Shown here: piece by piece, positions 38,432 through 59,822 of the stretch | Position numbering within the stretch: position 1 is the stretch's first letter | How the letters are laid out: every line of letters begins with the position of its first letter | Source of the DNA: Thermoanaerobaculia bacterium | Lineage (GTDB): Bacteria; Acidobacteriota; Thermoanaerobaculia; Gp7-AA8 | Assembly (NCBI GenBank): GCA_036261885.1 | Contig: DATAJY010000005.1 | Location: forward strand, 152,720 to 216,719 | Direction: 5' to 3' | DNA length: 64,000 nucleotides | Notes under the pieces: model-generated | Databases searched by the model: none | Told to the model about the DNA's origin: nothing | Seen by the model: only the letters and a program-made list of their open reading frames with translations | Position numbers and translations under genes: made by a program

Positions 38432-38475
38432 TTGTGCTGGAATTGAAATGCTGCTTTCTATACTAGCTGCCTTCA
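38432..38475. promoter_or_regulatory. AT-rich divergent promoter region between the kinase and LuxR genes
   Basis: 'tttgtgctggaattgaaatgctgctttctatactagctgcct' is ~40% GC, sharply below background, and is flanked by two divergent start codons. Confidence 0.35.
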
Positions 38476-39194
38476 TGAGATTGGACGCGCTCCGTCGTTT
38501 GTGGGAACGGCTTCGTGCGAGCGGCGGCAGCGCGCACGTGCTCGACAGTGACTCATTCACCGAAAGCGAGCGCGCCGTCGGGCGGATGGTGCTGCCGCTC
38601 ATCGCCGATCTCGAGAGCGCGCGGCAGACCATCGCCGATCTCACGGAGAAGGCGCTGGCCATCGATGCGCTGCTGCGTCTCGTCCCTTCCGCCGCGCTCG
38701 TCGTCGACGAACAGGGACGGCTGTTCTCCTCCAACGATGCGGCCAAGGCGCTCTTCGGCGGTCCGGCCATTCCGCTGTCGATCGTCGAGGTCGCGTCGCG
38801 CGCGTTGCGTTCCGGAGAAGAACGCGAATGCGATGCTGTCGCGCACCCGCGCCGCTCCGGCAGTTCGCTGCGCGTCGTGCCGGCGGACGTGGAACGGCGC
38901 GAGTCCGGACCCGGCGTCGTGTTTCTGGTCGCACCGGAAGGAGACGGCGGCGTCGATGAAGACGAAGTGGCGCAGCGTCTGCGGCTGACTCCGATGCAGG
39001 CCCGCGTGGTCTCGCTCGTCGCGCGCGGACTCTCGAATCGCGAAGTGGGCGAGCGCCTCGGTCTGTCGATCGAGACCGTGCGCAAACATCTCGCCGCCGC
39101 GTATCAGAAGACCGGCGTTCCCAATCGCGCCGGTGTCGTTGCGCTCGCCTATGGCGCGCGCTTCGGCGCGCGTCCGCCGCTCGATCTGATGTAA
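38476..39194 (+). CDS. LuxR-family transcriptional regulator (239 aa)
   Basis: C-terminal HTH 'LTPMQARVVSLVARGLSNREVGERLGLSIETVRKHLAAAYQKTGV'. ATG at 38476 ('MRLDALRRLWERL...'). Confidence 0.7.
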
Positions 39195-43666: not shown

Positions 43667-43783
43667 CCCGATGTGCTGCTTTGATTCCCTCCCGCCCGGT
43701 GCTCGTTGCTTTCTTCCTTCCATCCGTGCTTTAGTGCGTTCCGGTCCCGCTCACAATTCAAGAATCGAAAAAGGGAGGCATCC

Positions 43784-45373
43784 ATGAGACCTCGGTTGAG
43801 GACGATCGTCCTGGCGATCCTCGTCACGGCCATTTCCGTTCCGTTGTTCGCGCAGCAGCAGGGTGTGCGCATGAACTGGCAGACGTTCATCCAGGATCCG
43901 GCGCGCGTGCAGAGTCTGCGCAACGCCGTTGCGGTGATGAAATCGCGCAACAGCGCCGATCCGAAGAGCGCCGTGTATCGGACCAGCTGGGAGTACTGGG
44001 GGGCCATGCACGGCTACTTCGGTCCCGGCTCGGTCTTCGGCACCGTCGAGCAGGCCATCGCGCAGTACAACTCCAGCGGCGGCGATCCGCTGCTCCTTCC
44101 GCTGTACAACGGCATCAAGGACACGGCGCCGCCCGACGCGATCGCGCAGCAGGTATGGGGCCAGTGCCAGCACGGCACGCCTTGGTTCTTCGCGTGGCAT
44201 CGCCTCTACCTCTACTACTTCGAACAGGTGCTGCAGAAGGCGGCCAACGATCCGAATCTCCGCCTGCCGTACTGGGACTACACCGATCCGGCCAATCTGG
44301 CGATGCCGGCGCCGTACAGCACGCCGACGTATTTCGACGGCCAGGGCCACATCGAGGCCAATGCGCTCAACGAGCCGCGGCGCACGCCCGGCTGGAACCC
44401 GCCCGGCGGCAACCTGCTCGACGCGACGTCGACGAACATCAATGACGCGCTGAAGGACAAGACCTTCTTCGACACTCCGACCGGCACCGGCTACCAGAGC
44501 GACATCGAAGGGAATGTACACGGATATGTGCACTGCACCGTGGTGCCGTGTCCCGGGCCGGACATGGGCGCGGTCGGCTACTCCGCGAACGATCCGATCT
44601 TCTGGGCGCATCACGCGAACATCGATCGCATGTGGGACTGCTGGACGAGTCTCGGCAACAAGAACCCGACCGATGCGTCGTATCTGAACAAGACCTTCTC
44701 GTTCGTCGACGCCGACGGCAACCTGGTCACGAATGCGGTGGCCGATCTGTTCAACGGCAAGATCAAGTTCACCTACGTCTACCAGCAGGCCAGCAACTGC
44801 GCGCGTCCGGTCACGACGCTCGAAGCGGTGCCGGCGCCGTCGGCGAATCTCTCGCCGAGCGCGCTGGAAGCGGCGCGCACGAAACTCGCCGAGCCGGCCG
44901 TGCTCGCGGCGGTGAAGAATCACGTGATCAACGCGGAAGTGACGCGCAGGAAGCTGACGCTCGCGGGCGGGCAGCTGGAATCGGTCCGCTCGGTGGCGGT
45001 GCGCGGCAACGACGCCCTGCCGGTCGAGACCGAGCTCGTGCTGCGCAACATCCAGTTCGACTCGCATCCCGGCTCGCAGTTCAACGTCATTCTCGAACGG
45101 CGCGACGATGCGACGAAACGCGTTCGCGTCGGCACGCTGAGCTTCTTCGTTTCGACGAACCCGCACGAAGGGCACAGCGGCGCGATCAACCGCACGTTCG
45201 ACGTCACGGATGAGCTGCGCCAGATCGGCGCGTCGTCCGCCGATCTCAAGGACCTCAACGTCGTCTTCGAGGCGACGACCGGACGCGCGGGCGCGACCGA
45301 GTCGTCCTTCGACGCGAACGACGCGAAGGTCACGATCGGCGAGATCGAGCTGCGCGTGAAGGCAACGGAGTAA
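43784..45373 (+). CDS. secreted tyrosinase / type-3 copper polyphenol oxidase with C-terminal lid-like domain (529 aa)
   Basis: AAGGGAGG RBS and signal peptide 'MRPRLRTIVLAILVTAISVPLFAQQ'. CuA 'HGTPWFFAWHRLYLYYFEQV'. CuB 'HGYVH' with 'FWAHHANIDRMW'. Confidence 0.8.
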   Translation: MRPRLRTIVLAILVTAISVPLFAQQQGVRMNWQTFIQDPARVQSLRNAVAVMKSRNSADPKSAVYRTSWEYWGAMHGYFGPGSVFGTVEQAIAQYNSSGGDPLLLPLYNGIKDTAPPDAIAQQVWGQCQHGTPWFFAWHRLYLYYFEQVLQKAANDPNLRLPYWDYTDPANLAMPAPYSTPTYFDGQGHIEANALNEPRRTPGWNPPGGNLLDATSTNINDALKDKTFFDTPTGTGYQSDIEGNVHGYVHCTVVPCPGPDMGAVGYSANDPIFWAHHANIDRMWDCWTSLGNKNPTDASYLNKTFSFVDADGNLVTNAVADLFNGKIKFTYVYQQASNCARPVTTLEAVPAPSANLSPSALEAARTKLAEPAVLAAVKNHVINAEVTRRKLTLAGGQLESVRSVAVRGNDALPVETELVLRNIQFDSHPGSQFNVILERRDDATKRVRVGTLSFFVSTNPHEGHSGAINRTFDVTDELRQIGASSADLKDLNVVFEATTGRAGATESSFDANDAKVTIGEIELRVKATE

Positions 45374-46027: not shown

Positions 46028-47350
46028 TCACTGCTTTTCGAGACGCTCCATTCGTGCGCGCAGATCGGTGATCGTCTTCTGCTGCTCCTGCACGATCTTC
46101 GTCAGCACGGCCACCACGTCCATCGGCGCGAGTCCGGTGCGATCGGGAGTCGCCACGAGCTCCGGCACATCCTCGGCGATGAAGCCGACGTGCGTGTCGC
46201 TCGGATTCGCCTTGTACGCGAACGTGACCGGCTGCAGCGACTGCAGCGCATCGAACGCGGCGCCGGATTCGAGCTGGTGAATGTCCTGTTTGACCTTGCG
46301 GCTCGATGCATCGACCCACACACCGGCGTCGAGCCGGGCGCCGCTGCTGTGATGGATCTGGTACGACGGTGCGGCAACGCCGAGGCCGATGCGGCCGGTG
46401 CTGTCGATGACGAGCGAGTAGTAGGGAGCCGAGGGAAGGATGATGAACGGGTTCTGCTCGTGATTCACGTCGCGCACGTAGAAGTTGTTGTTGTTGGCGA
46501 CGATGTCCCACGTCTGGAACGGCGAGGCGCTCTGCTCCATGCGGATGGTCGGGGAGAGCGGCACGCTGATGGTCAGGTCTTTCGCGGGAGTGGAGGTGCG
46601 CAGCCCGATGCGGCCGGTGCTGTCGACGTAGAGCGCGTTGTTCGGTGTGCCTCCTTCGATCAGGAACGGCACCGTCGCGGCGGTGAGATCTTCGACGAAC
46701 AACTTGTTCGCGCCGCCGCTGAACGTGTCGTTCGCGCTGAGCTGCCAGTCGGTGGTCGCGAAGCCGGCGCTCGCCGACGTGTCCTCGAACTTGAGACGGG
46801 TGTTGTTCTCCTTCATCTTGATCGACGCGAAGCCGTAGGACTCGGCGTTCGTGCAATCGGAGCCGGCGCAGACGCCGCCCGCGGCGGCGACATCATCGGC
46901 GAAGAACGTATCGGTCGATGCTTTGAGTGAAGGGCGTGCGGTCTCACGAGCCGTCATCGGAACAACGGCGCCGTTCAGCACGGTGAACGATCCGGTCTGC
47001 ACGAGCAACGCATCGGCGGTGACGTCTTCCGAGACGCGTGAGATTTCGCGCGTCGCGCGCGCCGCGGTACGCAACTCGTACGAGTAGAGACCGTCGCTGA
47101 GATTCTCCACGCGCAGCAGCGGAGTGCGGCCGGGAGCGAACGTCTCGGTGGTCACCTGTCCATCGGGACGCTGCAGGGAGAGCACCGTGGCCGCGTGGTC
47201 GCCGGTGGGCTGCCACTCGACGGTCGTGGCCGTCGTGACGAGATGACCGACCGGCTCGTGCATCGCTGGAGCGGCGAGAACGGAGAGGGGCAGGAGTGAC
47301 GCGATGAACAGGGTGAAAAGCGAGATCGAGAACCGGGAGCGAATGCGCAT
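46028..47350 (-). CDS. secreted tail-fibre-like protein with C-terminal peptidase S74 / intramolecular chaperone autoprocessing domain (440 aa)
   Basis: Signal peptide 'MRIRSRFSISLFTLFIASLLPLSVLAAPA'. Repeated 'YVDSTGRIGLRTSTP' and 'VIDSTGRIGLGVAAP'. C-terminus 'DASSRKVKQDIHQLESGAAFDALQSLQPVTFAYKANPSDTHVGFIAEDV...TDLRARMERLEKQ' resembles the endosialidase/tail-spike chaperone domain with its Ser-Lys dyad. Confidence 0.65.
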   Translation of the reverse strand: MRIRSRFSISLFTLFIASLLPLSVLAAPAMHEPVGHLVTTATTVEWQPTGDHAATVLSLQRPDGQVTTETFAPGRTPLLRVENLSDGLYSYELRTAARATREISRVSEDVTADALLVQTGSFTVLNGAVVPMTARETARPSLKASTDTFFADDVAAAGGVCAGSDCTNAESYGFASIKMKENNTRLKFEDTSASAGFATTDWQLSANDTFSGGANKLFVEDLTAATVPFLIEGGTPNNALYVDSTGRIGLRTSTPAKDLTISVPLSPTIRMEQSASPFQTWDIVANNNNFYVRDVNHEQNPFIILPSAPYYSLVIDSTGRIGLGVAAPSYQIHHSSGARLDAGVWVDASSRKVKQDIHQLESGAAFDALQSLQPVTFAYKANPSDTHVGFIAEDVPELVATPDRTGLAPMDVVAVLTKIVQEQQKTITDLRARMERLEKQ

Positions 47351-47479: not shown

Positions 47480-50400
47480 TCACTCGGAGGCGTCGGCGGT
47501 TGCGCGTTGCCGCGTGCCGCCCGTGCTGCGGTTCGCGCGCTCGGCCATCTTGCGGAGATAGAGCTCGCAGCCGATGGAGTGGAAGATCGTGCGCGCGCGC
47601 TCGCGGCAGTCGGCGCGCTCGCGCGGATCGACTGCGTGGCGCGTCAGCTCATACAACGCGATTCCTTCTTCCATCAGCAGCCCGAGCCGTGCCGCGGTGG
47701 CGGCGGCTTTGCGCAGCAGACTCGTGCCGCGGCGTTCGCTGCCGTCGAGGCATTGCGCGACGCCGGCCAGCCGCAGCGTGCTCGGCGCGAGGATCGGCGC
47801 GCGCGCCGCGTAATGGCGAAGCTTTCGCAGCAGCGCGCTCACCGTGCGGCGCATCCGCGCGGCCTCCAGCGGATCGCGATAGCGCGCGCGCACCCACACT
47901 TCGAGATACACCTCCGCGGGACTCGAGAAGCCGCGCAGCATTTCGAAAAATGTGGGACGGTTCTTCGATGCGCTGGCGTACGCCGTGTCTGCCGCTTCGA
48001 CCGCGGCGTCGAGTTGATTGAGATGCAGCAGCGTCAGCGCGCGCAACGCGTCCATCACCACCATCGAGAGCGCGTCGTTGATCCCGACGAGACGGCGCGA
48101 GGCGTCGAGGAGATCGAGCGCCGTTTCGAGATCGCCCATGAAGATGAGCGCCCGCGCGCGGTCGATGTGTCCCCACGCCTCGTGCTGCTGATTGTTGCGC
48201 TTGCGCGCGAACTCGGCGAGGCGGGCGAACCGGTCGGCGGATGCAGAGAGTTTTCCGGTGTAGAACTCCCAATGACCGAGATGCGTTTCGAGTAATTCGA
48301 GCGCCTGCGGATCGCCGCAACGATGTGAAAGCAGCGTCGCCTCCTCCGCGGCGGCAGGCGCTTCTTTCCAGTCGCAGCGCGCGGTGTGGAAGTGGAGGCG
48401 GGCCTGCGCGACATTGGCCAGCACGAAGAGATCGTTCTCCGTTGCGGCGGTGTCGCGGGCGATCGTCAGGTAGCGGTTCGAGAGCCGGTGCAGCCCCATC
48501 ATTCCGCAGGCAAAGCCGAGAATGAAGTAGCCGAAGGCGTTGGCCGGCGTGCCGGTCAGACGCTCGCCGATGTTCACGCCGATCAGTGCGCTCGCCACCA
48601 TCGCCGTTTCGTTGGTGAGGTAATACGACAGCTCCGCGACGACCACCGCCGAATCGGAGAGCTCTTTCAGCACCAGCGTCTTCGTGCTGCGCGCGCGATA
48701 GAACGCGCGCGGCAGGAGGAGATGCATGGCCTGTCTCGTGATCTCGAGCAGCATGAGCGCCTGCCAGGCCCGAGTGCCGCGCGGTAGTTTCACGCCGAGC
48801 AATTCGAGGCTGGTGTTCAGGTGTTCGGCGGTGCTGTCGAGATCGCCGAGGCCGATTCCGGCCCGGCCGAGCAGACGATGCCAGCGCGCGTGGCGGATGC
48901 GCCGTGCGAGCACCGGCTCCGCATCGGCGTTCCGTTTGTCGAGCGAGATGGCGCGCCGCAGAAGATCTCTCGCGTCGCGGCATGCACCTCTCGTGATGGC
49001 GAGCTCTCCGGCCGTCGAGTAGTAGTGAATCGCTTTGCCGTGCTGGCCGGCCACATCCCAGTGATGCGCGAGCGCGGCCGCATTCGCGCGAAGCGAATCG
49101 TCGTCCGTGCAGGCGCTCTCGATCGCCTGCGCGGCGCGCGCGTGCAACGTGGCCAGCCGTTCCGGCGCGATGCGGTCGTAGGCCGCTTCGCGAAGCTTGT
49201 CGTGGGCGAAGCGAATCCCGCGATCGGCCGGATCCATCACGTACAGCTCGAGCAGCTCGGCGATGGCGCTCTGCGCATCGCAGGCGTTTTCCCCGCAGGT
49301 GGCGATCAGCAGCGCTTCGTCGACCTCGCGGCCGAGCACCGCCGCCGCTTCGACGACGCGGCCCGCGCTCGCGGAGATGGAGCCGAGTCGCCGGGCGACG
49401 AGATTGCGCAGGGTGCGCGGCAGTCCGAGATCGCTGAAGGAATGCGACCGCGCGCTCTGCACGTGCCAGTGACCCCCTTCGCGGTAGAGCAGTCGCTCGG
49501 CGACGGCGGCGCGCAGATATTCGGCGACGAAGAACGGATTGCCTTCGCACTGATTCGCGACGAAGCGAAGAAAACTCTCCGGTGCACCGGGCGCCGCGAG
49601 CATCGAGCGGACGATGTCGTGCACGCAGGTCTCGGCCAGTCGTTTGAGAGGCATCTTCACGACGTGCGGCCGCGCCAGCAGCGCGCGCAGATCGGGACCT
49701 GCTTCGTCGGCGCGATACGTGCCGAGCAGCATCAGCGGCGTGTTTGCGAAGAAGTCGGCGTCGAGCGTGGAGAGGAAACGCAGCGTCACCTCGTCGGCCC
49801 ACTGCAGGTCGTCGATGACCAGCACGTGCGGTCGTTCGCGCGCGAACGCATGCAGCGTTTCGGCGACGTCGGAGAAGAGCCGGCGGCAGGCGATCTCGGG
49901 AGGGATGCGCGGCGTTTCTTCGCTGCGCAATTCGACGAGCGCTTCGAAGGCGGGGTCGTGATCGCGAAGGACTGCCAGGCGCGGACCGAGAATCGACTCG
50001 ACGGCGCGAGGCGCATCGCCGCGGCAATGATCGGCGATGGCGCGGAACAGCGGCCGCAGGGGATGCAGTGCCTGTCCGCCGATCACATCGCCGCTCGTCG
50101 CGAGAGCCATGCATTCTCCGGCGATGACGCCGAAGCCGGCGAGTGTGGCCTCGCGTCCGAACACCGAGGCGACGGAGGTCTTTCCGATCCCGCTCTCTCC
50201 GCCGATGACGACGAACGCACCGCTGCGTTTGCGTCGATCGGGGAGACATGCGCGAAGCGCTTCGACGGTCTCCCGTCTGCCGACGATTTCAGGCCGATAC
50301 AGATACGTGGCCGGCTCGCTGCCGAAGTCGGCGTCGTACTGCGCGCCTGCATCGACGAGCAGCGCCGCGACGTCGTCGGCGTATCCGAGCCGGTCGGCGC

Positions 50401-51268
50401 GCCGCTTCTCGAGCAGATGCATGATGAGGTTGTCGAGCGCCGGCGGCACGTTTCGCACGACCTCGGACGGGCGCTGCGCGTTGCGCGTCAGATGCTGGAA
50501 CAGCACGTCGCCCGCGGAGGTGCCGTCGAACGGCGGCACGCCGGTGACGATCTCGTAGAGCATCACACCGAAGGAATAGAGATCGGAGCGCGCGTCGACG
50601 AGCTCGCCGCTGGCCTGTTCGGGCGATGCGTACAACGCGGTGCCGAGCATCTGTCCGGCGATCTCGAGCACCTCGCGGCCGCTGTGATCGTGATGGCGGC
50701 CGACCAGACCGAAGTCGACGAGCACCGGTCGATCGCCCGCGCGCACGAGCACGTTCTCCGGCTTGATGTCGCGATGAATGATGCCGTGCGCGTGAATGTG
50801 CGCGAGCACGCGCGCGAGCCGGTACATGAGCGTCAGCACACGCGGCAGATCGCTGCGCACTTCCGTGCGCGCATGCACGGAGGACGGCAGCACGCCCGAC
50901 ACCGGAATGAACGGATGCACCTGCTCGGTGACCGCGCGGTCGTACTCGGCGAGGCCGAGCAGCTCGCCGAGGGAGTGCGCCTCGAGCAGTTCCATGACGT
51001 ACCACGGCACACCCTTTTCGGTGCCCTCGTCGAGAATCCGCACGACGCCGGGATGCTGCAGCCGGCGCAGCGTCTGAATCTCGCGGCGGATGAATCCGAA
51101 CAGATCGGCCATCTCCGCCGACGCGATCTTGAGCGCCACCGCCGCGCCGTCGTAAAGACGCAGCGCGCGATACACGACTCCCATTCCGCCGCGCCCGATC
51201 TCGTACTCGATCTCGTACGGACCGATTGCACGCGGCGGGACCGGATCGCTGTGCGCAGCGACGCTCAT
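47480..51268 (-). CDS. STAND-type multidomain Ser/Thr protein kinase: Hanks kinase, then AAA+/P-loop NTPase, then TPR-like C-terminal region (1262 aa)
   Basis: 'GRGGMGVVYRA', 'AVALK' and 'HRDIKPENVLV' for the kinase. P-loop 'VVIGGESGIGKTSVAS'. Long helical repeat C-terminus. Confidence 0.75.
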   Translation of the reverse strand: MSVAAHSDPVPPRAIGPYEIEYEIGRGGMGVVYRALRLYDGAAVALKIASAEMADLFGFIRREIQTLRRLQHPGVVRILDEGTEKGVPWYVMELLEAHSLGELLGLAEYDRAVTEQVHPFIPVSGVLPSSVHARTEVRSDLPRVLTLMYRLARVLAHIHAHGIIHRDIKPENVLVRAGDRPVLVDFGLVGRHHDHSGREVLEIAGQMLGTALYASPEQASGELVDARSDLYSFGVMLYEIVTGVPPFDGTSAGDVLFQHLTRNAQRPSEVVRNVPPALDNLIMHLLEKRRADRLGYADDVAALLVDAGAQYDADFGSEPATYLYRPEIVGRRETVEALRACLPDRRKRSGAFVVIGGESGIGKTSVASVFGREATLAGFGVIAGECMALATSGDVIGGQALHPLRPLFRAIADHCRGDAPRAVESILGPRLAVLRDHDPAFEALVELRSEETPRIPPEIACRRLFSDVAETLHAFARERPHVLVIDDLQWADEVTLRFLSTLDADFFANTPLMLLGTYRADEAGPDLRALLARPHVVKMPLKRLAETCVHDIVRSMLAAPGAPESFLRFVANQCEGNPFFVAEYLRAAVAERLLYREGGHWHVQSARSHSFSDLGLPRTLRNLVARRLGSISASAGRVVEAAAVLGREVDEALLIATCGENACDAQSAIAELLELYVMDPADRGIRFAHDKLREAAYDRIAPERLATLHARAAQAIESACTDDDSLRANAAALAHHWDVAGQHGKAIHYYSTAGELAITRGACRDARDLLRRAISLDKRNADAEPVLARRIRHARWHRLLGRAGIGLGDLDSTAEHLNTSLELLGVKLPRGTRAWQALMLLEITRQAMHLLLPRAFYRARSTKTLVLKELSDSAVVVAELSYYLTNETAMVASALIGVNIGERLTGTPANAFGYFILGFACGMMGLHRLSNRYLTIARDTAATENDLFVLANVAQARLHFHTARCDWKEAPAAAEEATLLSHRCGDPQALELLETHLGHWEFYTGKLSASADRFARLAEFARKRNNQQHEAWGHIDRARALIFMGDLETALDLLDASRRLVGINDALSMVVMDALRALTLLHLNQLDAAVEAADTAYASASKNRPTFFEMLRGFSSPAEVYLEVWVRARYRDPLEAARMRRTVSALLRKLRHYAARAPILAPSTLRLAGVAQCLDGSERRGTSLLRKAAATAARLGLLMEEGIALYELTRHAVDPRERADCRERARTIFHSIGCELYLRKMAERANRSTGGTRQRATADASE

Positions 51269-51373: not shown

Positions 51374-52120
51374 TCACGGATAGTTCGAATCGGAGCAGCC
51401 GGAACCGAACGTCTCGTCCAGCACAACGGAAGCCTTCGGAATCTGAGGAGCGGGAGGGAAGACCGCGGCGAGGATGTAGTGAAGCAGAAAGTGACTGCCC
51501 GTGTGCTCGGTCTCGATGGTCTCGTTCGGATCGCGATTGCTGATCGTGATCGTCGCCGGCACGAGCACGCGCAGCGGCGAGGAAACCGGCGGCACCACCG
51601 GATTCGTGGCCCCGGGCAACGGCTCGATGTGCAGTCGGATGTGCGTCGGCGTCGGCGGGCCGATCACTTCGACGGCATCCATCTCCAGTTGCGACGCCAC
51701 CGCGCCATCTTCATCGATGAACGACGAGAGCACTCCCTGATCGGTGTCGAAGAACGCACCGATGGCCGGCCACGATCCGTCGAACACATTCGTCGATGGA
51801 ACTCCCAGCGTGAGGATCGGATTCATCAGCTGCGTGAGGTTCGGAGTGAGATTGATGAAGTCCTGCGTCAGATCCAGTCCCGTTCCCGGCGTCTCGACGC
51901 GAATCCGAACGCCCTGCAGCGTGAAGGTCTGCGGGCCGTCGTGATCGACCGTCGAGGAGACGCTCATCGTGGCGATGTGAGGCGGGATCAGAATGTCGTT
52001 GATGATGTTGAGACCACTCGCGTTCACCAGCACGACGCGATGGTTCACGTCGAGTCGCGAGTTGGCCTCCCTGGAGAAATGCGTGCAGATGCCCTGGAAT
52101 TGAACGGTCACGTTTCCCAT
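51374..52120 (-). CDS. hypothetical protein (248 aa), co-transcribed downstream of the anti-sigma/CHAT gene
   Basis: ATG at 52120, 16 bp after the upstream stop. 'MGNVTVQFQGICTHFSREANSRLDVNHRVVLVNASGL...' carries no assignable motif. Confidence 0.5.
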   Translation of the reverse strand: MGNVTVQFQGICTHFSREANSRLDVNHRVVLVNASGLNIINDILIPPHIATMSVSSTVDHDGPQTFTLQGVRIRVETPGTGLDLTQDFINLTPNLTQLMNPILTLGVPSTNVFDGSWPAIGAFFDTDQGVLSSFIDEDGAVASQLEMDAVEVIGPPTPTHIRLHIEPLPGATNPVVPPVSSPLRVLVPATITISNRDPNETIETEHTGSHFLLHYILAAVFPPAPQIPKASVVLDETFGSGCSDSNYP

Positions 52121-52136
52121 CGGTGTTGCTCCTTTC

Positions 52137-55100
52137 TCACAGCCGGCGAATGCGCGTGGTGAGTACAGCGACGGACCTCCACGCCGTGCGATGCGGATCG
52201 CGCATCGATTCGAGTTGCGCGCGGCGCACCGCCTCGGCCGCGCCCGCTCCCGCGGCGAGATGGCGATGAACGGTCAGAAAGAACAGCCGGGCATCGCTGT
52301 CCGCCACCGGCGTGAGCGTCCCGATCACGTCTCCCGCTCCGGCGGCGAGAAATGCGCCGCCGAGGCTGAGTGCGCGCGTCGGGCCCGCATGCGGCGCGCG
52401 CAACGTGTCGCACGCCGCGAGCACGACTACCGGCGCGTGCCGGAGTGAGGCACCGGAAAGCCGCCGCCACGAAACGCGATCGCGTCGTTCGGCCGGCCCG
52501 AGCAACAGCACCGTCTCCGCGATCGCATCGTTCGCGCTGTGACCGGACAGATGAATGACGTCCGCATTCCGCGCGCGCTCGAGGAAAACCGGCAGCGTGC
52601 TTCGCTCGCCGGCGAGGTCCGCTCCGCTCGCGTACAGACGGCGGATCTCCGCCAGCTCTTCGACACTGCCCGGAAGACCGACGTCCTCCGACGCCAGCTC
52701 GACGCCGAGCATCGAGCGCGGTGTGCGGCGCTGCGTCTCCGCGCGCAACGCGCTCGCCGACGGAGCGACGGAGAGCGGCATCTGTTCGACGAACATCCGC
52801 CGCGTCACCGAGTCGGTGAGCGCCGCGAACGGAACGCGCGCCAGTCGCGGATCGGCGATGACGATGACTTCGTTTGCGCGCGCCAGCAGCGGCGCCGCGG
52901 GGCGAATGAGAAGGTCGTAGAGCGACGTCGATGCGTTTCGATCGCCCTGAACCGCGGCGTCGGCAAGCGCGGGCAACGTCTCTTCCGCGACCGGCTGCCT
53001 GTGCACCTCCATCCGATCGGACGTGATGCAGAACGCGATCACCTCGTGCGGCAACACCACCAGTTCGAGCAGCGCGTTTCCGCTGTCCGCGAGGCGTTCT
53101 TGAAGGGCGAGCCGCGTGGCGGGCGGCGTCGCAGGACCGATCTGCGCGAGCGAACGATCGGCATACGCGAATGCAGCATCGTGATCGCCGCGCGCGAGCG
53201 CGAGCTCGATGGCCTCGCGATACAGCGCCGAGCCGGCGTCGAGCACGCCGGTGCCGCTGACCGCGTCGCTGAAACGGACCGGCTGTCGTTCGTACGCGGC
53301 AATGCCGTCGTCGAGATCCCGTCGCGCGCCGATTCGATCTTCGACACGCAATCGCGCGCGCGCTCGCAGAAGATGACATTCGGCGATGAACGGCGCGGCT
53401 TCGAGCGTGCGATAGCCGTCGATCGCTTTGCCGAGGAACTCGGCGGCACGCCGCGGATCGTCCGCGAGCAGCGCTGCACCGGTGGCGAAGTCGACATCGG
53501 TGAGCGCTCTGGCGCGCAGCCCGGCATCGGAGATCTTCGCCGCCCTTTGTGCCGCCTCGCGTGCGGCAACGGCCGCGGCGCGAGGGTCACCGAGTTGCGC
53601 GTCGAGCACGGCCGCGCGCACGAGCGTGTTGGTGCTCATCACGTCGTTCGCGGTGCGGCTCTGTGCCGCGCGTTCGAGTTGCGCGAGCGAGCGCGCCACC
53701 GCGAGCTGGCCGTTGCGCAATTCCACCTGCACCGCTCCGCCGAGGCTCACCGGCAGGCGGTCGCCGCGTCCGCTCGTGCTCAACATCGTGAACGAGCGGA
53801 TGCGCGCGGCCCACGCGTCATCGGGGCGGCCGAGCGCGTTGAGCACGTCGGCCTGCAGCGTTTCGAGGAAGCCGCAGTTGCTCGATTCGCCGAGATCGCA
53901 GAACGCGCGCGCCGCATCGCGCACCAGCGGCAGCGCGCCGCTCCAGTCGTCGTCGTTCATCAGACAGAGCGCGAGCTCCCAGCGTACGTGCGCGGCGAGA
54001 GCGGGGAAGCGGCGTTCGTGCAGCAGCGCTTCGAGCTCCGTGCGCGCGCCGCGGATGTCGCCGCGATCGAAGCGCGTGTTCGCGGCGTAGTAACGCGCCA
54101 CGAGCGCCATCGGATCGTTTGCGAAGAGCTGGGCCGCGCGGCGCAACTCGCTCTCCGCTTCCGCGGGAGCTTGCCGGCTGTAGGCGATGCGTCCGCGTCG
54201 ATAGGCGACGTGCGCCTCGGCGATCTCGCGTCGTCGTTCGGGCGCGGCGTCATCGATCGCGCGTACGGCGTCGCGCAACAGCGACTCGCCGGAGATGCGC
54301 AGGAGCGCGTCGCCGATGGCGCGTGCAATCGTCAACTGCCGCGAAGCCTCGGCCGCATCGGCGTGCAACGCGGCCTCGCCCCAGAAGCCGAGGTACTCGC
54401 CTTCGCCGAACGCGCGACTCTGCTGGCGGAACTGCTGCACGATCGAGGAGATCGTGGCGACGTCGCCTGCCGCGACCGCGCGTTCGAGCCGCGGCCGTTC
54501 CGAGCGGAACTGCGATTCTCCGGTCGTCGCCGGAAGCCGCGCGAGATGCTGACGCGCTTCTTCCGCCCACTTCGACGACGCGTCGAGCTCGAGGTACTGC
54601 TGCCACGCCTCCCGAGCGGCCTGCAGGAGGCCGAGGCGCTCGAGGATCAGCGCGCGATTGAAGCGCGCCTCGGGGAGACGCGGATCGATGCGCAAGGCGG
54701 CGTCGACGTCCGCCAGTGCCATCGGAATGAGCGAGGGCGCGCGCCCGCGTTCCGCCGCCGCCAGTCGTGCCGCGGCAAGATCGCTGCGCACCTTCGCATC
54801 GTTCGGCGACGCTTCCGCCGCGGCGCGAAGTTTTTCCACCGCATCCTTTGGCCGCCCCGTCAACAGGAGCGCGAGACCGGCGCCCTGTTGTGCGGATGCG
54901 GATGGATCGTGCGCGGCCTGATCGAGAATCTCGCCCGCCGCGCCGACGAGCTTCATCTGTTCCGGATCGATGGCGCCCTCGGTCGCGCGCATCGGACCGC
55001 GGAACGGCGTCCAGGGAAAACCGCCGGTTACGCGCGGCTCGATGAGCCGCTCGGATCGCGGCGACAGCGACACGAGTCGTCGAATCGGATCGCGCTGCGA

Positions 55101-55346
55101 CAGGCGATCGCGAAACAGCAGCAGACCGGCGATCGCAATCGCCAGCACCGCCGCCGCGGCGAGCAATTGCAGCGGCAAACGGCGCGACGCCGGCGAACGA
55201 ATGGCCTCGACGTCTGCCGTGCAGTCATTGCAGTGCCTCAGGTGCGCGAGCACCGGTGCGATCTCCTGCCGCGTCAACTTGCCCTCCGCGAACGCCGCCA
55301 GCGTTTCCGCATCGAGGCACGACCGCTGATTCCTGTCGCGACTCAT
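52137..55346 (-). CDS. membrane anti-sigma factor (zf-HC2) with periplasmic TPR repeats and C-terminal CHAT protease domain (1070 aa)
   Basis: Internal ATG at 55346 overlapping the sigma stop. Zinc-finger 'HLRHCNDC'. TM 'LPLQLLAAAAVLAIAIAGLLLF'. Long TPR-like helical region. CHAT dyad 'VIHLSGHSAND' and 'VVVLAACDT'. Confidence 0.7.
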   Translation of the reverse strand: MSRDRNQRSCLDAETLAAFAEGKLTRQEIAPVLAHLRHCNDCTADVEAIRSPASRRLPLQLLAAAAVLAIAIAGLLLFRDRLSQRDPIRRLVSLSPRSERLIEPRVTGGFPWTPFRGPMRATEGAIDPEQMKLVGAAGEILDQAAHDPSASAQQGAGLALLLTGRPKDAVEKLRAAAEASPNDAKVRSDLAAARLAAAERGRAPSLIPMALADVDAALRIDPRLPEARFNRALILERLGLLQAAREAWQQYLELDASSKWAEEARQHLARLPATTGESQFRSERPRLERAVAAGDVATISSIVQQFRQQSRAFGEGEYLGFWGEAALHADAAEASRQLTIARAIGDALLRISGESLLRDAVRAIDDAAPERRREIAEAHVAYRRGRIAYSRQAPAEAESELRRAAQLFANDPMALVARYYAANTRFDRGDIRGARTELEALLHERRFPALAAHVRWELALCLMNDDDWSGALPLVRDAARAFCDLGESSNCGFLETLQADVLNALGRPDDAWAARIRSFTMLSTSGRGDRLPVSLGGAVQVELRNGQLAVARSLAQLERAAQSRTANDVMSTNTLVRAAVLDAQLGDPRAAAVAAREAAQRAAKISDAGLRARALTDVDFATGAALLADDPRRAAEFLGKAIDGYRTLEAAPFIAECHLLRARARLRVEDRIGARRDLDDGIAAYERQPVRFSDAVSGTGVLDAGSALYREAIELALARGDHDAAFAYADRSLAQIGPATPPATRLALQERLADSGNALLELVVLPHEVIAFCITSDRMEVHRQPVAEETLPALADAAVQGDRNASTSLYDLLIRPAAPLLARANEVIVIADPRLARVPFAALTDSVTRRMFVEQMPLSVAPSASALRAETQRRTPRSMLGVELASEDVGLPGSVEELAEIRRLYASGADLAGERSTLPVFLERARNADVIHLSGHSANDAIAETVLLLGPAERRDRVSWRRLSGASLRHAPVVVLAACDTLRAPHAGPTRALSLGGAFLAAGAGDVIGTLTPVADSDARLFFLTVHRHLAAGAGAAEAVRRAQLESMRDPHRTAWRSVAVLTTRIRRL

Positions 55347-56197
55347 TGCCGATCCTCGGCCGGAGCGGTCCGGTCTTCTTCTACCGACTGCCGGAACGGC
55401 TCCGCTTTCCCGCTCTCGAGTCCGAAGTCCATCTCCTGCGATGCCTCGCCGATGACGCTCGAGAGTGCATTCGCGTCGAGCTCCGCGGCGATGAGCGCGG
55501 CGCGCAGTTTCGCGAGCAGCGTCTGAATGCGGCGATAGAGCGGACGCTGGGGGAGGCGCAGCATGCGCGAGATGTCGGCGATGCTCATGGACGAGCCGTA
55601 ATGGAAGCGAAGGATCATCGCGTCTTCGTCCGCCCACGTGTCGATGGTGCGCCGCACGATCTCGCTCGCACGCGCCGACAGCCGGCGCGCCTCGGCGGAT
55701 AGCGCGCGTCCATCGGCTCGCTCGCGGCTCGGCAGCGCTTGTTCATCGGTGTCCTCCAGTGCGACGGCGCGCAACCGGCCGGGCCGCTGCGGCAGTTGTC
55801 GCGCCATGGCCGCGATTTCCTCATGCGTCAGCGCGTAGCGGGCCTGAACGATCGGGATCACTCCCTCGAGCGGGCGGCCGTCGCGCACGAGCAGTTTCTC
55901 GAGCAGGACACCGCCGGGTCCGAATCGCGTCGCCTCCGCGGAGGGACGCCAACGCCCGAATTCCTCATTGCGTTGATCGGAGAGCAGCCGCCGGATGACG
56001 ACGCTCAGATAGCCGGCCAGTGAGGAGCGCCCTTCCCAGCGGCGAAGAACGACGTAGTCGTTCTCCATCAACGCCAGTCGCGCCGAAGAGGAGAAATCCT
56101 CCGCCTCGGCATCGCGCAGGCGAGCCGATCGACAGACCTCGCGGATGACGCGGTCGATGACCGTCAGGTTGTCCCTGAACAGGCGTTCCGGATCCAT
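55343..56197 (-). CDS. ECF-type sigma-70 factor with C-terminal extension (284 aa)
   Basis: Internal ATG at 56197 ('MDPERLFRDNLTVIDRVIREV...'). Region-4 HTH 'MSIADISRMLRLPQRPLYRRIQTLLAKLR'. Translationally coupled to the anti-sigma gene. Confidence 0.65.
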   Translation of the reverse strand: MDPERLFRDNLTVIDRVIREVCRSARLRDAEAEDFSSSARLALMENDYVVLRRWEGRSSLAGYLSVVIRRLLSDQRNEEFGRWRPSAEATRFGPGGVLLEKLLVRDGRPLEGVIPIVQARYALTHEEIAAMARQLPQRPGRLRAVALEDTDEQALPSRERADGRALSAEARRLSARASEIVRRTIDTWADEDAMILRFHYGSSMSIADISRMLRLPQRPLYRRIQTLLAKLRAALIAAELDANALSSVIGEASQEMDFGLESGKAEPFRQSVEEDRTAPAEDRQ

Positions 56198-56334
56198 TGC
56201 TGAAGGGAAGTACCGAGAAAATGATACGCCGCCTTCCACAAAAACGGCGTGGCGGAATCGTCTTGTACGGGAGCCGATGGAAAAACGCGGGCCTTCGTCA
56301 GTCGTGGTGATGGAGGAGAGAACAATGCCCGCTA

Positions 56335-57344
56335 AAACGTCCAATACGCCCATCACCCCCGCACCGATGATTTATGCGTCGTTGTTCGGCACCTGCAATC
56401 CCAACGATTCCACAATTGCGTCTTACATCGCCGCCGCGACCGATCTCGCGGAGTCGGGATTCGCAACCGTGAACGTGTGGCAGTTTCACGTCGACGGCTC
56501 CGGCAACCTGCTCGTCAATGCCGCCGCACCCGGCCCGGCGCTGATTTCCGGCGGCTCGCTGCAGAGCGGGTTTTCGTACGTTCCGGAAGTCATCGCCGCC
56601 CTCACTGCAGCCGGCGGCAAGGTGACGACCATCCGGGCCACGATCGGCGGCTGGGGACTCGACAACACGTTCAACAACATGGTGCAGCTGATCAATCAAT
56701 TCGGCACCGGACCCGCGAATCCGCTCTATCAGAACTTCGTGGCATTGAAGGCGCTCGGCATCAGCGGCATCGATCTCGATCTCGAGCCGGCCGGCGGAGA
56801 GGTGATTCACGACTATCCGTATTACATCGGCCCGCTCGCGCAATTGATCACCATGATTGCGGAGCTCGGCCTGAGCACGACGTTCTGTCCGTACCAGAAC
56901 GAGAATTTCTGGCTGGTGCTCCTCGCCGCCGTCTGTGCACAGAACGACGGCGCGCAGCCGGTGCAGTCGATGAACGTGCAGTGCTATTCCGGAGGCGCCG
57001 GCAATACACAGAGCGGATGGATCGAGGCGCTGAAACGCTTTCCCTCGCTCGGAATCGGAATGGCCGGAACGGTGGAAGAGACGTTCGGCATCAGCGATCC
57101 GGCCTCGTTCGTCGTTCCCGGATTCGGTGTGCTGTCGTCGGGGCAGCCACAATGCCCGAACGTCATTCAACAGGCATTGACGGCGCAAGGGTTCGCCCGG
57201 AAGGGCATCAGCGCCGCCTATCTGTTCAATTACGCCAACATCCAGACCATTCAGCAGGACGGGAGCTGCCCTGACGACAATGCGACCGCCGATTACGCGA
57301 ATGCACTCATCGCCGGCATCAACGCGGTGAACGGTGTGAGCTGA
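56335..57344 (+). CDS. glycoside hydrolase family 18-like (chitinase-like TIM barrel) protein, no signal peptide (336 aa)
   Basis: GGAGGAG RBS. GH18-like 'TIRATIGGWG' and DxDxE-like 'GISGIDLDLEP'. Ends 20 bp before the S8 protease gene. Confidence 0.5.
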
Positions 57345-57363
57345 GGCTCGCAGGCGATCGCTC

Positions 57364-59235
57364 ATGAATCCCTCAGAAACAACGGTCACGCATTCGGCGT
57401 GGCGTGCGGAGCTCGAACGAATCTCGGCCGGTGCGAGGGGCGACGCGCGCGTGCGTGTGGCGATGATCGACGGGCCGGTCGATCGGACCCATCCGGCATT
57501 ACAGGGCGCCACGCTCGAATTTCTCGAGTCTCCTGCACCGAACGCCTCCGCGTCGCACGGAACGTCGGTCGCCAGCGTGCTGTTCGGCCAGCCGGGAAGC
57601 GCGATTCACGGCATCGTTCCGCACTGTCACGGTCTGATCGTTCCGGTTCTTCGCGAGAGCAATGGAATGCTCGCCGCCTCCCAACTCGATCTGGCGCGCG
57701 GCATCGTGCTGGCGCTGGCTCATCGCGCGTCGATCATCAACATCAGCGCCGGACAATTCGACCCCGGCGGCGAAGCGCATCCTTATCTCGCCGACGCGCT
57801 TCGTCACGCGCGGGAACAGGGCGCGCTCGTGATCGCGGCGGCCGGAAACGACGGCTGCCATTGTCTGCACGTGCCGGCCGCGGATCCGTCGGTGCTGGCG
57901 GTCGGAGCGATCGACGACAGTGGACGTCCGCTGCCGATGAGCAACTGGGGCGCGGCCTATCGCGACCACGGCATCGTCGCACCGGGAAGCGTTCTCAGTG
58001 CCCAGACCGGCGGTGGAGCGGCTGTACACACCGGCACGAGCTGGGCCACCGCCGTCGTCTCCGGCTTCGCTGCGCTGCTCTTGTGCGAGCAACTGCAGTG
58101 CGGCGATGAGCCGGACGTGCGTCGCGTGCGCGAGGCCATTCTCGAGACCGCGGACCGCTGTCATGAAGAGACGGACCACGACTGTCAACGCTTGCTCGAG
58201 GGACGGCTCAATGCAGCCGCCGCCTGGAGACGAATCAGGGAGAGAAGGAGGACACCGATGATCGAGGAGATGCAGTCTGTCGTACCGGCCGCAATGGCCG
58301 TACCGATTTCCACTTTTGAGGTGGCCGCGGGCCCGGCGCCGCCGCCACGCGTCACGCCGAGCTGCGGATGCGGCGGAGGAAGTGCCGACTCCTGCAGTTG
58401 CCGCGACAAGGAAAAACCGGCGCCGGAGAGCAGCTGTGCGTCGAAGAAAGCTCCCCCTCCGCTCGTCTATGCGCTCGGCCAGCTCGGCTACGATTTCGCG
58501 AGCGAAGCGCGGCGCGACTCACTGATCCAGCAGGGGCTCCACAATCCCTACGATCCGGTGCAACTGCTCAATCATCTGGAGTCCAATCCCGCCGCGGCCG
58601 CCGCCGTCACCTGGACGCTCGTGCAGGATTCGACGCCGATTTACGCGATTCAACCGGTGGGACCGTTTGCGGCGGAGACGTATGCACTGCTGCGCAAATT
58701 TCTCGGACAGCAGCTGCACGAAGGCGTCGAACGGATTTCGGTGCCGGGGTGGGTCGGCGGAAAAGGCGCGCTGTCCAATGGGCAGATCCTGCCGGTAATC
58801 GTGCCGGACCCGCGCGGTATGTTCAGCTGGACGACGCGCGCGCTGCTCGAAGCGGTGCTCGGTTCGCGCGAAGACGAGGAGAGCTCGCGCGAGCGCGCCA
58901 GCGAACTGGCGAACTTTCTCGATCGCATCTACTTCGAAGTGCGCAACCTCGGCCTGCTGCCGCAGGAGCGGGCCATCAATTACGCCGCCACGAACGCGTT
59001 CCAGCTCGGCGAGGTCTACACCCGCAATGCGAAAGCGGGCCTCAAGCTCGACGTCATCGGCGCCGAGCGCAGCCCGATCTGCAGACCGGAGTCCGACTGC
59101 TGGGACGTGAAGCTGACGTTCTTCCATCCCGCGCGGCGGCTGGAACAGGCGAGAGAAGTGTTCCGCGTGACCGTCGATGTGAGCGACGTCGTTCCCGTGA
59201 CGGTCGGCCCCGTGCGGAGCTGGCACGTCTACTGA
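57364..59235 (+). CDS. cytoplasmic S8 (subtilisin-family) serine peptidase with Cys-rich linker and PatA/PatG-like C-terminal domain (623 aa)
   Basis: Catalytic triad contexts 'VAMIDGPVD' (Asp), 'SHGTSVASV' (His) and 'GTSWATAVVSG' (Ser). No signal peptide. Linker 'SCGCGGGSADSCSCRDKEK'. C-domain motif 'LVYALGQLGYDFASEARRDSL', which I recall as characteristic of the cyanobactin-protease PatA/PatG C-terminal domain (from memory, unverified). Confidence 0.75.
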   Translation: MNPSETTVTHSAWRAELERISAGARGDARVRVAMIDGPVDRTHPALQGATLEFLESPAPNASASHGTSVASVLFGQPGSAIHGIVPHCHGLIVPVLRESNGMLAASQLDLARGIVLALAHRASIINISAGQFDPGGEAHPYLADALRHAREQGALVIAAAGNDGCHCLHVPAADPSVLAVGAIDDSGRPLPMSNWGAAYRDHGIVAPGSVLSAQTGGGAAVHTGTSWATAVVSGFAALLLCEQLQCGDEPDVRRVREAILETADRCHEETDHDCQRLLEGRLNAAAAWRRIRERRRTPMIEEMQSVVPAAMAVPISTFEVAAGPAPPPRVTPSCGCGGGSADSCSCRDKEKPAPESSCASKKAPPPLVYALGQLGYDFASEARRDSLIQQGLHNPYDPVQLLNHLESNPAAAAAVTWTLVQDSTPIYAIQPVGPFAAETYALLRKFLGQQLHEGVERISVPGWVGGKGALSNGQILPVIVPDPRGMFSWTTRALLEAVLGSREDEESSRERASELANFLDRIYFEVRNLGLLPQERAINYAATNAFQLGEVYTRNAKAGLKLDVIGAERSPICRPESDCWDVKLTFFHPARRLEQAREVFRVTVDVSDVVPVTVGPVRSWHVY

Positions 59236-59265
59236 GAATTTTCCCGACAAACGAAAGGAGCGATC

Positions 59266-59589
59266 ATGGACATCCCGATTCAAGCGTCACCCGCGCGGCG
59301 CGGCACGATGCAGCGCATTCCTCTCCACGACGACGCGGCCGTTCTGGCCGCATGCAGTCTGTCCGAGCAGATCAGCTGTTGTGCGCTGGCGGCGGGTCTC
59401 GTCGCCGCGTGCGCCTCCGTCGGAACCGGCATCGGCATCATCGCCTGCGCGGCCGCCATCGGTGGCTACGTCGGCTCCGATTGCGAAGACTGCGCGTGTG
59501 GCGAGCCGCTGCGCGCGAGCGTCTGTGGCTGGGTCGACATCATCAACAGCATCGCGCCCAACACCATCCCGGTGCCGTCGTTCTGCTGA
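59266..59589 (+). CDS. small Cys-rich hydrophobic peptide, putative RiPP/bacteriocin precursor A (107 aa, 10 Cys)
   Basis: Strong RBS 'aaaggagcgatcATG'. Leader-like 'MDIPIQASPARRGTMQRIPLHDD', then Cys/Gly/Ala-rich core 'ISCCALAAGLVAACASVGTGIGIIACAAAIGGYVGSDCEDCACGE...SVCGW...SFC'. Confidence 0.55.
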   Translation: MDIPIQASPARRGTMQRIPLHDDAAVLAACSLSEQISCCALAAGLVAACASVGTGIGIIACAAAIGGYVGSDCEDCACGEPLRASVCGWVDIINSIAPNTIPVPSFC

Positions 59590-59600
59590 AGGAGGCAACG

Positions 59601-59822
59601 ATGAATCTTCCCAATCAAGTCCCCTCTGTCGCCAGGTCCGGCGCCGCAACGAGCATCCCGCCGGCCGTGCTCGCACAAGGCTGCTCCGTCGGCCAGGGCT
59701 TCCTCTGCGCCGGCACCATCCTCGCGTGCCTCGGCGCCTGCTGCTCCGGCCTCTGCCTCCTGTCTCCGCTCTGCATCGCCTGCATGGGCGGCGCATACAC
59801 GGAATGCAAAGACTGCTTCTAG
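59601..59822 (+). CDS. small Cys-rich hydrophobic peptide, putative RiPP/bacteriocin precursor B (73 aa, 10 Cys)
   Basis: RBS 'gaaggaggcaacgATG'. Leader 'MNLPNQVPSVARSG' is paralogous to peptide A's 'MDIPIQASPARRG'. Core 'GCSVGQGFLCAGTILACLGACCSGLCLLSPLCIACMGGAYTECKDCF'. Confidence 0.55.
   Translation: MNLPNQVPSVARSGAATSIPPAVLAQGCSVGQGFLCAGTILACLGACCSGLCLLSPLCIACMGGAYTECKDCF

Follow-up and report, generated by a model that had tools for sequence, protein, structure and literature searches.

The closest described counterpart of the locus analysed here is DdvS/DdvA of Myxococcus xanthus (MXAN_7289/7288; PDB 8ROT, 8RW5 and 8RLZ), a sigma/anti-sigma pair whose architecture is already known: the kind was described in 2018, and its structure followed in 2024 (PMC6061681, PMC11506125). 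DdvA (991 aa) consists of a CHCC zinc anti-sigma (ZAS) domain, one transmembrane (TM) helix, a flexible linker, a scaffold, a TPR region and a CHAT domain with the dyad H862/C907 (PMC11506125). Cryo-electron microscopy (cryo-EM) revealed an arrow-shaped dimer with the TPR-CHAT parts and the sigma-bound N-domains at opposite faces of the micelle, and a CHAT domain that has no three-alpha-helix motif and turns its active site toward the linker of the partner subunit (PMC11506125). RseP-dependent degradation was shown for DdvA deprived of its ectodomain, and self-cleavage by CHAT followed by RseP proteolysis is the published model, proposed and still unproven (PMC11506125). In craspase, the type III-E CRISPR (clustered regularly interspaced short palindromic repeats) module Csx29/Csx30/Csx31/CASP-sigma, Csx29 cleaves Csx30 and frees CASP-sigma (PMC10028731). 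The extracytoplasmic function (ECF) sigma factors of group ECF54 have CHAT, subtilase and carboxypeptidase genes in their genomic context and were described without an anti-sigma factor, proteolytic control being proposed (PMC8999054). The present analysis concerns a 64,000-nt stretch of DNA (hereafter the window) from the Thermoanaerobaculia bacterium GCA_036261885.1 (contig DATAJY010000005.1, positions 152,720-216,719 of the forward strand), in which three consecutive genes encode a putative ECF-type sigma factor, a TM anti-sigma factor with TPR and CHAT domains, and a third protein of 248 aa. This locus is very likely a DdvA-type sigma/anti-sigma module. To our knowledge, DdvA is the only anti-sigma factor with a TPR-CHAT sensor that has been studied, and the type was reported to be nearly confined to Myxococcota. 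The DdvA-like proteins of the literature come from Myxococcota and a single Comamonas, Acidobacteriota lying outside the published distribution, and the DdvS/DdvA authors noted that only a subset of the DdvA-like pairs adjoins defence systems. What the present locus and its relatives add to the literature is the phylum, the size and paralogy of the family, a longer sigma factor and an almost universally linked third protein without known fold.

According to the open reading frame (ORF) listing, the three genes follow one another in head-to-tail order on the minus strand. The first (55343-56197) encodes a sigma-70 family, ECF-type sigma factor of 284 aa, as judged from TIGR02937 and family searches. 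The second (52137-55346, 1069 codons plus the stop codon) encodes the DdvA-type TM anti-sigma factor, identified by domain, profile and structure matches, and the third (51374-52120) encodes the 248-aa protein, a soluble member of an unnamed family recognized by its motifs. The junction between the sigma stop and the anti-sigma start reads CAATGAGT, an ATGA overlap. The TGA of the anti-sigma gene is followed by a 16-nt spacer, GAAAGGAGCAACACCG (52121-52136, minus strand), with a Shine-Dalgarno-like AAGGAG ribosome-binding site, after which the third gene begins with its ATG. Both the overlap and the 16-nt spacing had been pointed out in the original prediction and can be read directly from the DNA. 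The GC content at third codon positions (GC3) is 0.80-0.81 in the sigma, anti-sigma and third genes, in a genome of 65% GC, and by this measure the three ORFs behave as real genes. The locus is a genuine three-gene signalling cassette of sigma factor, membrane anti-sigma factor with CHAT domain and third protein; no second copy was found inside the 64-kb window.

The anti-sigma factor begins with a predicted cytoplasmic zinc anti-sigma domain (residues 10-49, 55200-55319), assigned from ligand conservation, zf-HC2 and the DdvA alignment. It is followed by a single TM helix (residues 57-79, 55110-55178; hydropathy), a juxtamembrane linker (residues 80-127, 54966-55109; conservation, DdvA alignment and model) and a putatively extracytoplasmic all-alpha scaffold with a TPR superhelix (residues 128-744, 53115-54965; TPR matches, model and DdvA alignment). 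A caspase-like, clan CD CHAT domain (residues 745-1069, 52140-53114; PF12770 and dyad) ends the protein, all coordinates being on the minus strand. The zf-HC2-type motif claimed in the original prediction gave 19.7 bits, slightly under the Pfam cut-off of 22.2, and was upheld by conservation. The zinc ligands are C10, H35, C39 and C42; C10 is conserved in 74% of homologues, and H35, C39 and C42, like H932, H936 and C979 of the CHAT domain, are invariant in 50/50 aligned homologues and at least 95% conserved among 120. The single TM helix was likewise borne out, with a mean Kyte-Doolittle hydropathy of 2.55 for residues 57-79 against 1.75 or less for every other segment, and with a TM helix in 120/120 homologues (mean 2.35, minimum 1.62). 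The middle region matches Pfam TPR_9, TPR_11, TPR_16 and TPR_21, and residues 805-1053 match Pfam CHAT (PF12770) with an E-value of 2.6e-35, in agreement with the TPR and CHAT regions and the His/Cys dyad first proposed. The catalytic His would be H936, the second His of 'HLSGHSAND' (codon 52539-52541), and the catalytic Cys C979 (codon 52410-52412). The domain thus appears to be of the clan CD cysteine peptidase type, with the catalytic His preceding the Cys and a caspase-like fold in the predicted structure.

The AlphaFold2 model of the anti-sigma factor (pLDDT 88.7, pTM 0.83) shows, in this order, a three-helix N-domain (helices predicted at residues 13-20, 26-38 and 40-49), the TM helix, the linker, about 30 or more helices and an alpha/beta CHAT domain. 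The linker has little predicted secondary structure, and the pLDDT falls to 64 at residues 121-130. Its sequence is nevertheless well conserved: the window of residues 91-120 ranks fourth among all 30-aa windows (0.77 against a protein mean of 0.63), R100, R105, G117 and R120 are invariant in the 50 aligned homologues, and E103 is near-invariant. These features make the linker a candidate site-1 cleavage or docking segment.

When the window anti-sigma factor alone was searched against solved structures, DdvA (8ROT_B) was the best relative (E 1.6e-10), and the family profile matched the same PDB chain with an E-value of 5.6e-28. The profile blocks are collinear, residues 12-276 aligning with DdvA 7-284 (ZAS, TM helix, linker and scaffold) and residues 924-1069 with DdvA 839-985 (CHAT). 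A Foldseek search with the predicted model also placed DdvA first (8ROT_A, E 1.9e-21, TM-score 0.58 over about 1020 aligned columns), followed by separases at ranks 3-8 and Csx29 at ranks 9-30. In these alignments H936 corresponds to H862 of DdvA and C979 to C907, with a His-to-Cys spacing of 43 residues versus 45 in DdvA. The linker (residues 80-127) aligns with DdvA 95-143, and the zinc ligands and the linker motif R-x-x-E-x-R (R109/E112/R114 in DdvA) are invariant between DdvA and the family.

The two systems therefore share the same domain order, from a CHCC ZAS domain through one TM helix, a long linker, a helical scaffold and TPR to a CHAT domain with a His/Cys dyad. They also share a sigma gene directly upstream and translationally coupled to the anti-sigma gene, the occurrence of several paralogous pairs per genome, and a third gene of unknown function after the anti-sigma gene, the last being a likeness by position. 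They differ in that the window anti-sigma factor is only about 20% identical to DdvA, in their hosts (Acidobacteriota, class Thermoanaerobaculia, versus Myxococcota or Comamonas) and in the sigma factor, which has 284 aa with an insert and a tail here versus 182 aa in DdvS. Moreover, CBASS (cyclic oligonucleotide-based antiphage signalling system) or type III-B CRISPR-Cas genes stand beside DdvS/DdvA, whereas neither adjoins the window cassette. A genome scan with a DdvA fragment, aimed at the M. xanthus locus, gave no match. A metagenome scan with DdvA first in the alignment returned loci only 23-38% identical to DdvA, which surfaced through the Thermoanaerobaculia-type motif EALFNRAL[IV], and no Myxococcota-like locus.

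One TM helix and a cytoplasmic sigma factor would place the sigma-binding N-domain and the C-terminal part of the anti-sigma factor on opposite sides of the membrane. From the single TM helix, the DdvA structure and a homologue in Gemmatirosa kalamazoonensis, we infer that residues 80-1069 lie outside the cytoplasm. The Gemmatirosa homologue of the scaffold-TPR-CHAT part is plasmid-borne (hmmsearch E 2.8e-64 and 1.7e-46) and begins with a lipoprotein signal (…LTASGVSSVTGC) where the ZAS domain and TM helix would stand. It occupies 4599-7705 of plasmid NZ_CP007129.1, without ZAS domain, TM helix or sigma factor, and in the ORF listing its reading frame changes close to position 6900, through either a possible frameshift or a sequencing error. 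The positive-inside rule was discarded as topology evidence, being uninformative when both TM flanks are Arg-rich.

More than 500 full-length proteins of roughly 1070 aa are related to the anti-sigma factor at 45-72% identity, and all those from a named source belong to Thermoanaerobaculia or Acidobacteriota. A scan of species-representative genomes gave 212 anti-sigma relatives, and the locus counts below rest on the best 80 of these 212, which are all of Thermoanaerobaculia/Acidobacteriota lineage, with several per genome. At least six cassette copies were found on the single 5.08-Mb contig CAVWUH010000002.1. Two complete same-strand cassettes stand together at 2.17-2.20 Mb of this contig (loci L003 and L036; also L081, 1-2531), with about 7.5 kb separating the end of the third gene in one from the sigma start of the other. 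The sigma/anti-sigma/third-gene triad, whose presence in other genomes had been proposed as a check, recurs throughout. A sigma homologue lies directly upstream of the anti-sigma gene in 78/80 loci, the remaining two being cut by contig ends, and in 61/64 the stop of the sigma gene and the start of the anti-sigma gene form an NTGA overlap. Downstream, an ORF starts at -10 to +124 nt from the anti-sigma stop in 73/76 loci; 49 of the downstream ORFs passed a strict N-terminal-motif filter, and those of 51/79 loci fell into one BLAST cluster with the window third protein. Nearly every cassette includes the third gene. There is no fourth conserved gene, the next best cluster occurring in just 10 of the 79 loci compared, and no protease gene is conserved beside the cassette among the compared loci. 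Soil Acidobacteriota thus hold a much larger reservoir of this sensor type, with hundreds of full-length DdvA relatives and several per genome. For comparative work it offers the invariant juxtamembrane R-x-x-E-x-R...R segment as a concrete candidate cleavage or docking site, and the almost universally linked third protein as a new handle on the mechanism.

ECF (group 4) sigma factors contain only the sigma2 and sigma4 domains and typically have about 170-220 aa. The first gene of the cassette had been predicted to encode such a factor. This assignment stands in that the protein passes TIGR02937 (44.9 bits, cut-off 42.9), but at 284 aa it is atypical, and it has no Pfam match of its own at E≤0.01. 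Its layout comprises sigma2 (about residues 15-85), a conserved insert of about 80 aa, sigma4 (about 178-237) and a tail of about 45 aa. Family members have 270-290 aa, and M1 in their alignment speaks for the ATG at 56197 as start codon. TIGR02937 was matched by 55/55 scanned members, with Sigma70_r4_2 in 45 and Sigma70_r2 in 26 of these at E<0.1, and the family profile found only a generic sigma4 among solved structures (E about 3e-4). By its sequence, the protein appears to be an ECF-type, atypically long sigma factor.

The 248-aa protein was said to belong to no recognizable family, and no match was indeed obtained in Pfam, NCBIfam, PADLOC or PHROGs, in a fold search of BFVD or by tblastn against plasmids; its predicted model is confident and matched no known fold. 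It does belong to a large family of its own. A profile search gave 784 representative clusters at E≤1e-3, and the best 150 matches listed are all stand-alone proteins of about 200-330 aa. The family motifs are an N-terminal FxGICTH, HRVVLxNA, DFLLHYL and, at the extreme C-terminus, GCS(D/N)SxYP. In an alignment of 79 sequences G10, H48, N195 and C242 are invariant and F8, H14, R28 and D125 nearly so, while C12 reaches 90% in a smaller alignment of 58 sequences only. FxGICTH begins at residue 5-16 in 193/217 members, a CSxSxYP-like tail ends 188/217, and a strongly hydrophobic window occurs in only 1/217. The position of FxGICTH and the lack of a hydrophobic window indicate a soluble family with no room for a signal peptide.

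It had been suggested that this third protein might be the substrate of the CHAT domain, an effector or a target of the sigma regulon. The role of substrate now seems the least likely, because the family, having neither signal peptide nor TM segment, is predicted to be cytoplasmic while the CHAT domain is predicted to be periplasmic. Our best guess is that the third protein is an integral cytoplasmic component of the cassette, an accessory factor that would act on the side of the sigma factor and the anti-sigma N-domain, possibly through a Cys/His site. In Gemmatirosa, a 340-aa ORF (7727-8749 of the plasmid) located 22 nt after the TPR-CHAT homologue shows collinear third-protein-like motifs (G..., PDA, PH, xVxN and DFxxLYHL) that are not significant; with an hmmsearch E-value of 0.06 and an hhalign probability of 1%, it was not accepted as a relative.

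Taken together, these features support the core of the original prediction, namely an ECF-type sigma factor, a single-pass zinc anti-sigma factor with TPR-CHAT, and a coupled third gene. The two findings named beforehand as refuting it, a catalytic His/Cys pair that varies among homologues and a cytoplasmic CHAT domain in a protein lacking a TM segment, were not encountered, the dyad being invariant and the TM segment present in all homologues. It is reasonably likely that the locus as a whole works as a regulated-proteolysis switch of the DdvS/DdvA type, organized as a three-gene operon. At rest, the anti-sigma factor would sit in the inner membrane, and its cytoplasmic zinc-binding three-helix N-domain would sequester the co-translated sigma factor. 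The remaining approximately 990 residues (linker, scaffold, TPR superhelix and CHAT) would form a periplasmic sensor, probably dimeric by analogy with DdvA. An extracytoplasmic signal, probably a protein read by TPR/CHAT, would switch on His936/Cys979, and the CHAT domain would cut the juxtamembrane linker of the partner subunit. Clan CD proteases commonly require a basic or acidic P1 residue, and R100, R105 and R120 are the candidate P1 positions. With the ectodomain lost, an RseP-type site-2 protease and cytoplasmic proteases may destroy the remainder, and the freed sigma factor would transcribe its own operon and nearby, locus-specific genes. The architecture, its conservation, the DdvA homology and the organization of the operon are established by the analysis; topology, dimerization, self-cleavage, the involvement of RseP and autoregulation are all extrapolated from DdvA and from what is generally known about regulated intramembrane proteolysis (RIP). 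The chances that CHAT self-cleavage is the trigger appear evenly balanced; this idea of a self-cleaving sensor, also put forward in the original prediction, is not new, as it is already the published and still unproven model for DdvA (PMC11506125).

Several observations weigh against such a switch. No proteolysis by a DdvA-type CHAT domain has been demonstrated, the DdvA mutants H862A and C907A behaved like the wild type, and there is no known inducer (PMC11506125). The window sigma factor has 284 aa versus 182 aa in DdvS; searched as a single sequence against solved structures it gave no match, and beyond sigma4 no specific solved sigma factor was found. The published DdvS promoter motif, GTAA-N16-CGT, lies upstream of only 2/74 family sigma genes, and no regulon could be defined for the sigma factor. 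The charges around the TM helix are ambiguous, the K+R count being 2.7 on the N-side and 3.3 on the C-side, both flanks being Arg-rich.

The silent dyad mutants of DdvA, together with its resting dyad geometry and 'incomplete' active site (PMC11506125), and the reliance of canonical RIP on separate site-1 proteases such as DegS, lend themselves to another explanation, in which CHAT is not the site-1 protease. The ectodomain would then act as ligand-binding sensor and steric block together, or would cut an incoming foreign protein, and a separate periplasmic protease would cut before RseP. In the present family, however, the His/Cys dyad is invariant across hundreds of paralogues that otherwise share only 45-50% identity, which argues for an active protease and not a pseudo-enzyme. 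In addition, the conservation of the linker equals that of the active-site region, and a protease gene that might supply the first cut is not conserved beside the cassette. We regard this explanation as rather unlikely.

Release could also take place in the cytoplasm, if oxidation or zinc loss at C10/H35/C39/C42 loosened the N-domain, as in ZAS proteins of the RsrA/ChrR type, the ectodomain being structural or localizing. The CHCC residues are conserved in the family, and when zinc binding is impaired, DdvA interacts less strongly with DdvS and defence is activated (PMC11506125). Such a mechanism would nevertheless leave unexplained why an ectodomain of about 990 residues with an intact dyad is conserved, and it could act alongside proteolysis instead of replacing it. 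Many ZAS domains, moreover, are not redox sensors, and we consider this route improbable. A cytoplasmic TPR-CHAT part that cleaves the 248-aa protein or the sigma complex, the hydrophobic segment being a mere anchor, would suit the Csx29/Csx30/CASP-sigma precedent (PMC10028731), the always co-encoded third-protein family without export signal and the slightly higher positive charge on the C-terminal TM flank, but is very improbable given the opposite-side arrangement that a single TM helix and a cytoplasmic sigma factor impose, the same arrangement in the DdvA cryo-EM structure (PMC11506125) and the export of the Gemmatirosa TPR-CHAT homologue as a lipoprotein.

The proposed DdvA-type switch can also be compared with other systems. 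Like craspase, it would use a TPR-CHAT protease that governs an ECF-type sigma factor by cutting its inhibitor, and Csx29 is a structural neighbour of the anti-sigma model. Csx29, however, is a cytoplasmic monomer that RNA activates by way of Cas7-11, and its inhibitor is another protein, whereas here protease and anti-sigma factor are one membrane protein. No cas genes were found in the window, and the craspase hallmark of a Cas7-11-bound TPR-CHAT protein with a separate Csx30 does not apply to the locus. With RseA/DegS/RseP the cassette shares a single-pass anti-sigma factor with a cytoplasmic sigma-binding domain and, presumably, the sequence of ectodomain removal, site-2 cleavage and cytoplasmic degradation. 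It differs in that the site-1 protease would be part of the anti-sigma factor itself and in an ectodomain about 10 times larger. Eukaryotic separase resembles the anti-sigma model in its helical-repeat and CHAT fold. It cuts with an Arg-specific P1, and the window family has invariant arginines in the candidate cleavage segment; the biology of separase, which is inhibited by securin, is unrelated, and its spacing is ExxR versus E-x-R here. As for ECF54, an ECF sigma factor is likewise associated with CHAT-domain proteins, but in the window the CHAT domain sits within a bona fide zinc anti-sigma factor.

Downstream of the cassette, a gene with Pkinase and AAA_16 domains (1262 aa, 47480-51268, minus strand) begins 105 nt after the third gene. 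The claim of a kinase of the STAND (signal transduction ATPases with numerous domains) type immediately downstream on the same strand is correct as to position. The gene is not a conserved partner, as relatives adjoin the cassette in 3/80 loci; a divergent 399-aa protein and a PatG-type protease are likewise found beside it in 0/80 and 0/80. The STAND kinase, the PatG protease and the 399-aa neighbour were therefore all rejected as system partners. The 1262-aa protein combines a Ser/Thr kinase domain, AAA_16 and a helical-repeat region in a STAND-like manner, and it partly matches TOMM kinase/cyclase and PD-T4-6/Mad6 kinase models through its kinase domain.

Comparison of neighbourhoods was limited to six loci and is anecdotal. 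In a soil metagenome contig (L082), an extracellular contractile injection system (eCIS) lies directly downstream of the cassette (13187-23174; sheath, gp19-like tube, baseplate, Pvc16_N, AAA ATPase and eCIS_core). Elsewhere, one related locus has LamG and LTD proteins near the cassette. A second has DUF6603 giants, a PIN toxin-antitoxin pair and an M61 peptidase, and a third has a nuclease, an S8 protease and a 3447-aa Ig-repeat protein. In yet another, a DUF4062-NPHP3_N STAND protein, a C14 caspase, a further CHAT protein and a ParE toxin-antitoxin pair were found. The neighbours in the window are the kinase-AAA_16 gene, the PatG-type protease with Cys-rich small ORFs, and a tail-fibre-like protein. 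This pattern would fit an arrangement in which every paralogue is connected to its own variable locus of the conflict type, in the way that DdvS/DdvA is connected to CBASS/CRISPR. The variety of neighbours (eCIS, STAND proteins, caspases, and genes for ribosomally synthesized and post-translationally modified peptides, RiPPs) suggests that this type of sensor may be a general front end of conflict systems, beyond CBASS/CRISPR.

More tentatively, the third protein may be an obligate third component of the module with a new fold, serving either as a cytoplasmic Cys/His (metal) factor for the release or activity of the long sigma factor, or, if exported by a non-classical route, as a partner whose conserved C-terminal tail the TPR region reads. 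Thermoanaerobaculia would then have multiplied the module (at least six copies per genome) so that separate extracytoplasmic protein signals govern different conflict loci, for example contractile injection systems, STAND NTPases or kinases, caspases, toxin-antitoxin pairs and RiPP clusters. We consider this extended picture possible but doubtful.

Several other genes of the window deserve mention. A possible RiPP cluster (56145-59822, plus strand) diverges from the sigma gene; no such cluster stands beside the cassette in the other loci (0/80). Its first gene (ORF from 56145, with a true start probably later) belongs to no family and carries a GH18-like 'GIDLDLE' motif. It is followed by a PatA/PatG-family subtilisin maturation protease (57364-59235, plus strand), which scored 610 bits against TIGR03895 (cut-off 421) and has PatG_C and PatG_D, and by two small Cys-rich hydrophobic ORFs resembling precursor peptides (59266-59589, 107 aa; about 59601-59822, 73 aa). 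Next to a tyrosinase-domain protein (43706-45373, plus strand) is a tail-fibre-like protein (46028-47350, minus strand) that carries an intramolecular-chaperone domain, Peptidase_S74, at its C-terminus and matches PHROG tail-fibre families. The window further encodes a second, conventional ECF sigma factor (33271-33921, minus strand, 216 aa, Sigma70_r2 and r4_2), a 1057-aa protein whose C-terminal domain is a Ser/Thr kinase (35912-39085, minus strand) and a 2589-aa ORF with coding-type GC3 (13057-20826, plus strand). No CBASS or CRISPR genes were found in the window, and PADLOC returned nothing specific.

Upstream of the sigma gene, a match to GTAA-N16-CGT at 56404-56426 was rejected as a DdvS-type promoter. 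The window holds 4 such matches versus 1.6 expected, and, since the motif is absent in 72/74 family loci, the match was put down to chance. A candidate -10-like promoter element is GCGTATCAT (56221-56229, minus strand), an instance of an element that recurs in the family; its 3' end is found 24 nt before the sigma start codon, and it is the sole match in the 64-kb window. In 39/75 loci an element of the form [GC]TA[TA][CGA][CAG]T occurs no more than 100 nt ahead of the sigma ATG, mostly 19-35 nt upstream, and the family consensus is (G)GCGTATC[CA]T. In addition, TTTTCC(A) was found upstream of 36/75 family sigma genes, against 2.4 expected (loci L001-L080), often followed 8-13 nt on by GAAAA to give an inverted-repeat-like site, and CTTCAGCA often stands immediately before the sigma ATG, the window included. 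In the window, the TTTTCC(A)-type site and the pre-ATG CTTCAGCA site are located at 56278-56290 and 56198-56215, respectively, and sites of these kinds may represent operators, promoter elements or leaders.

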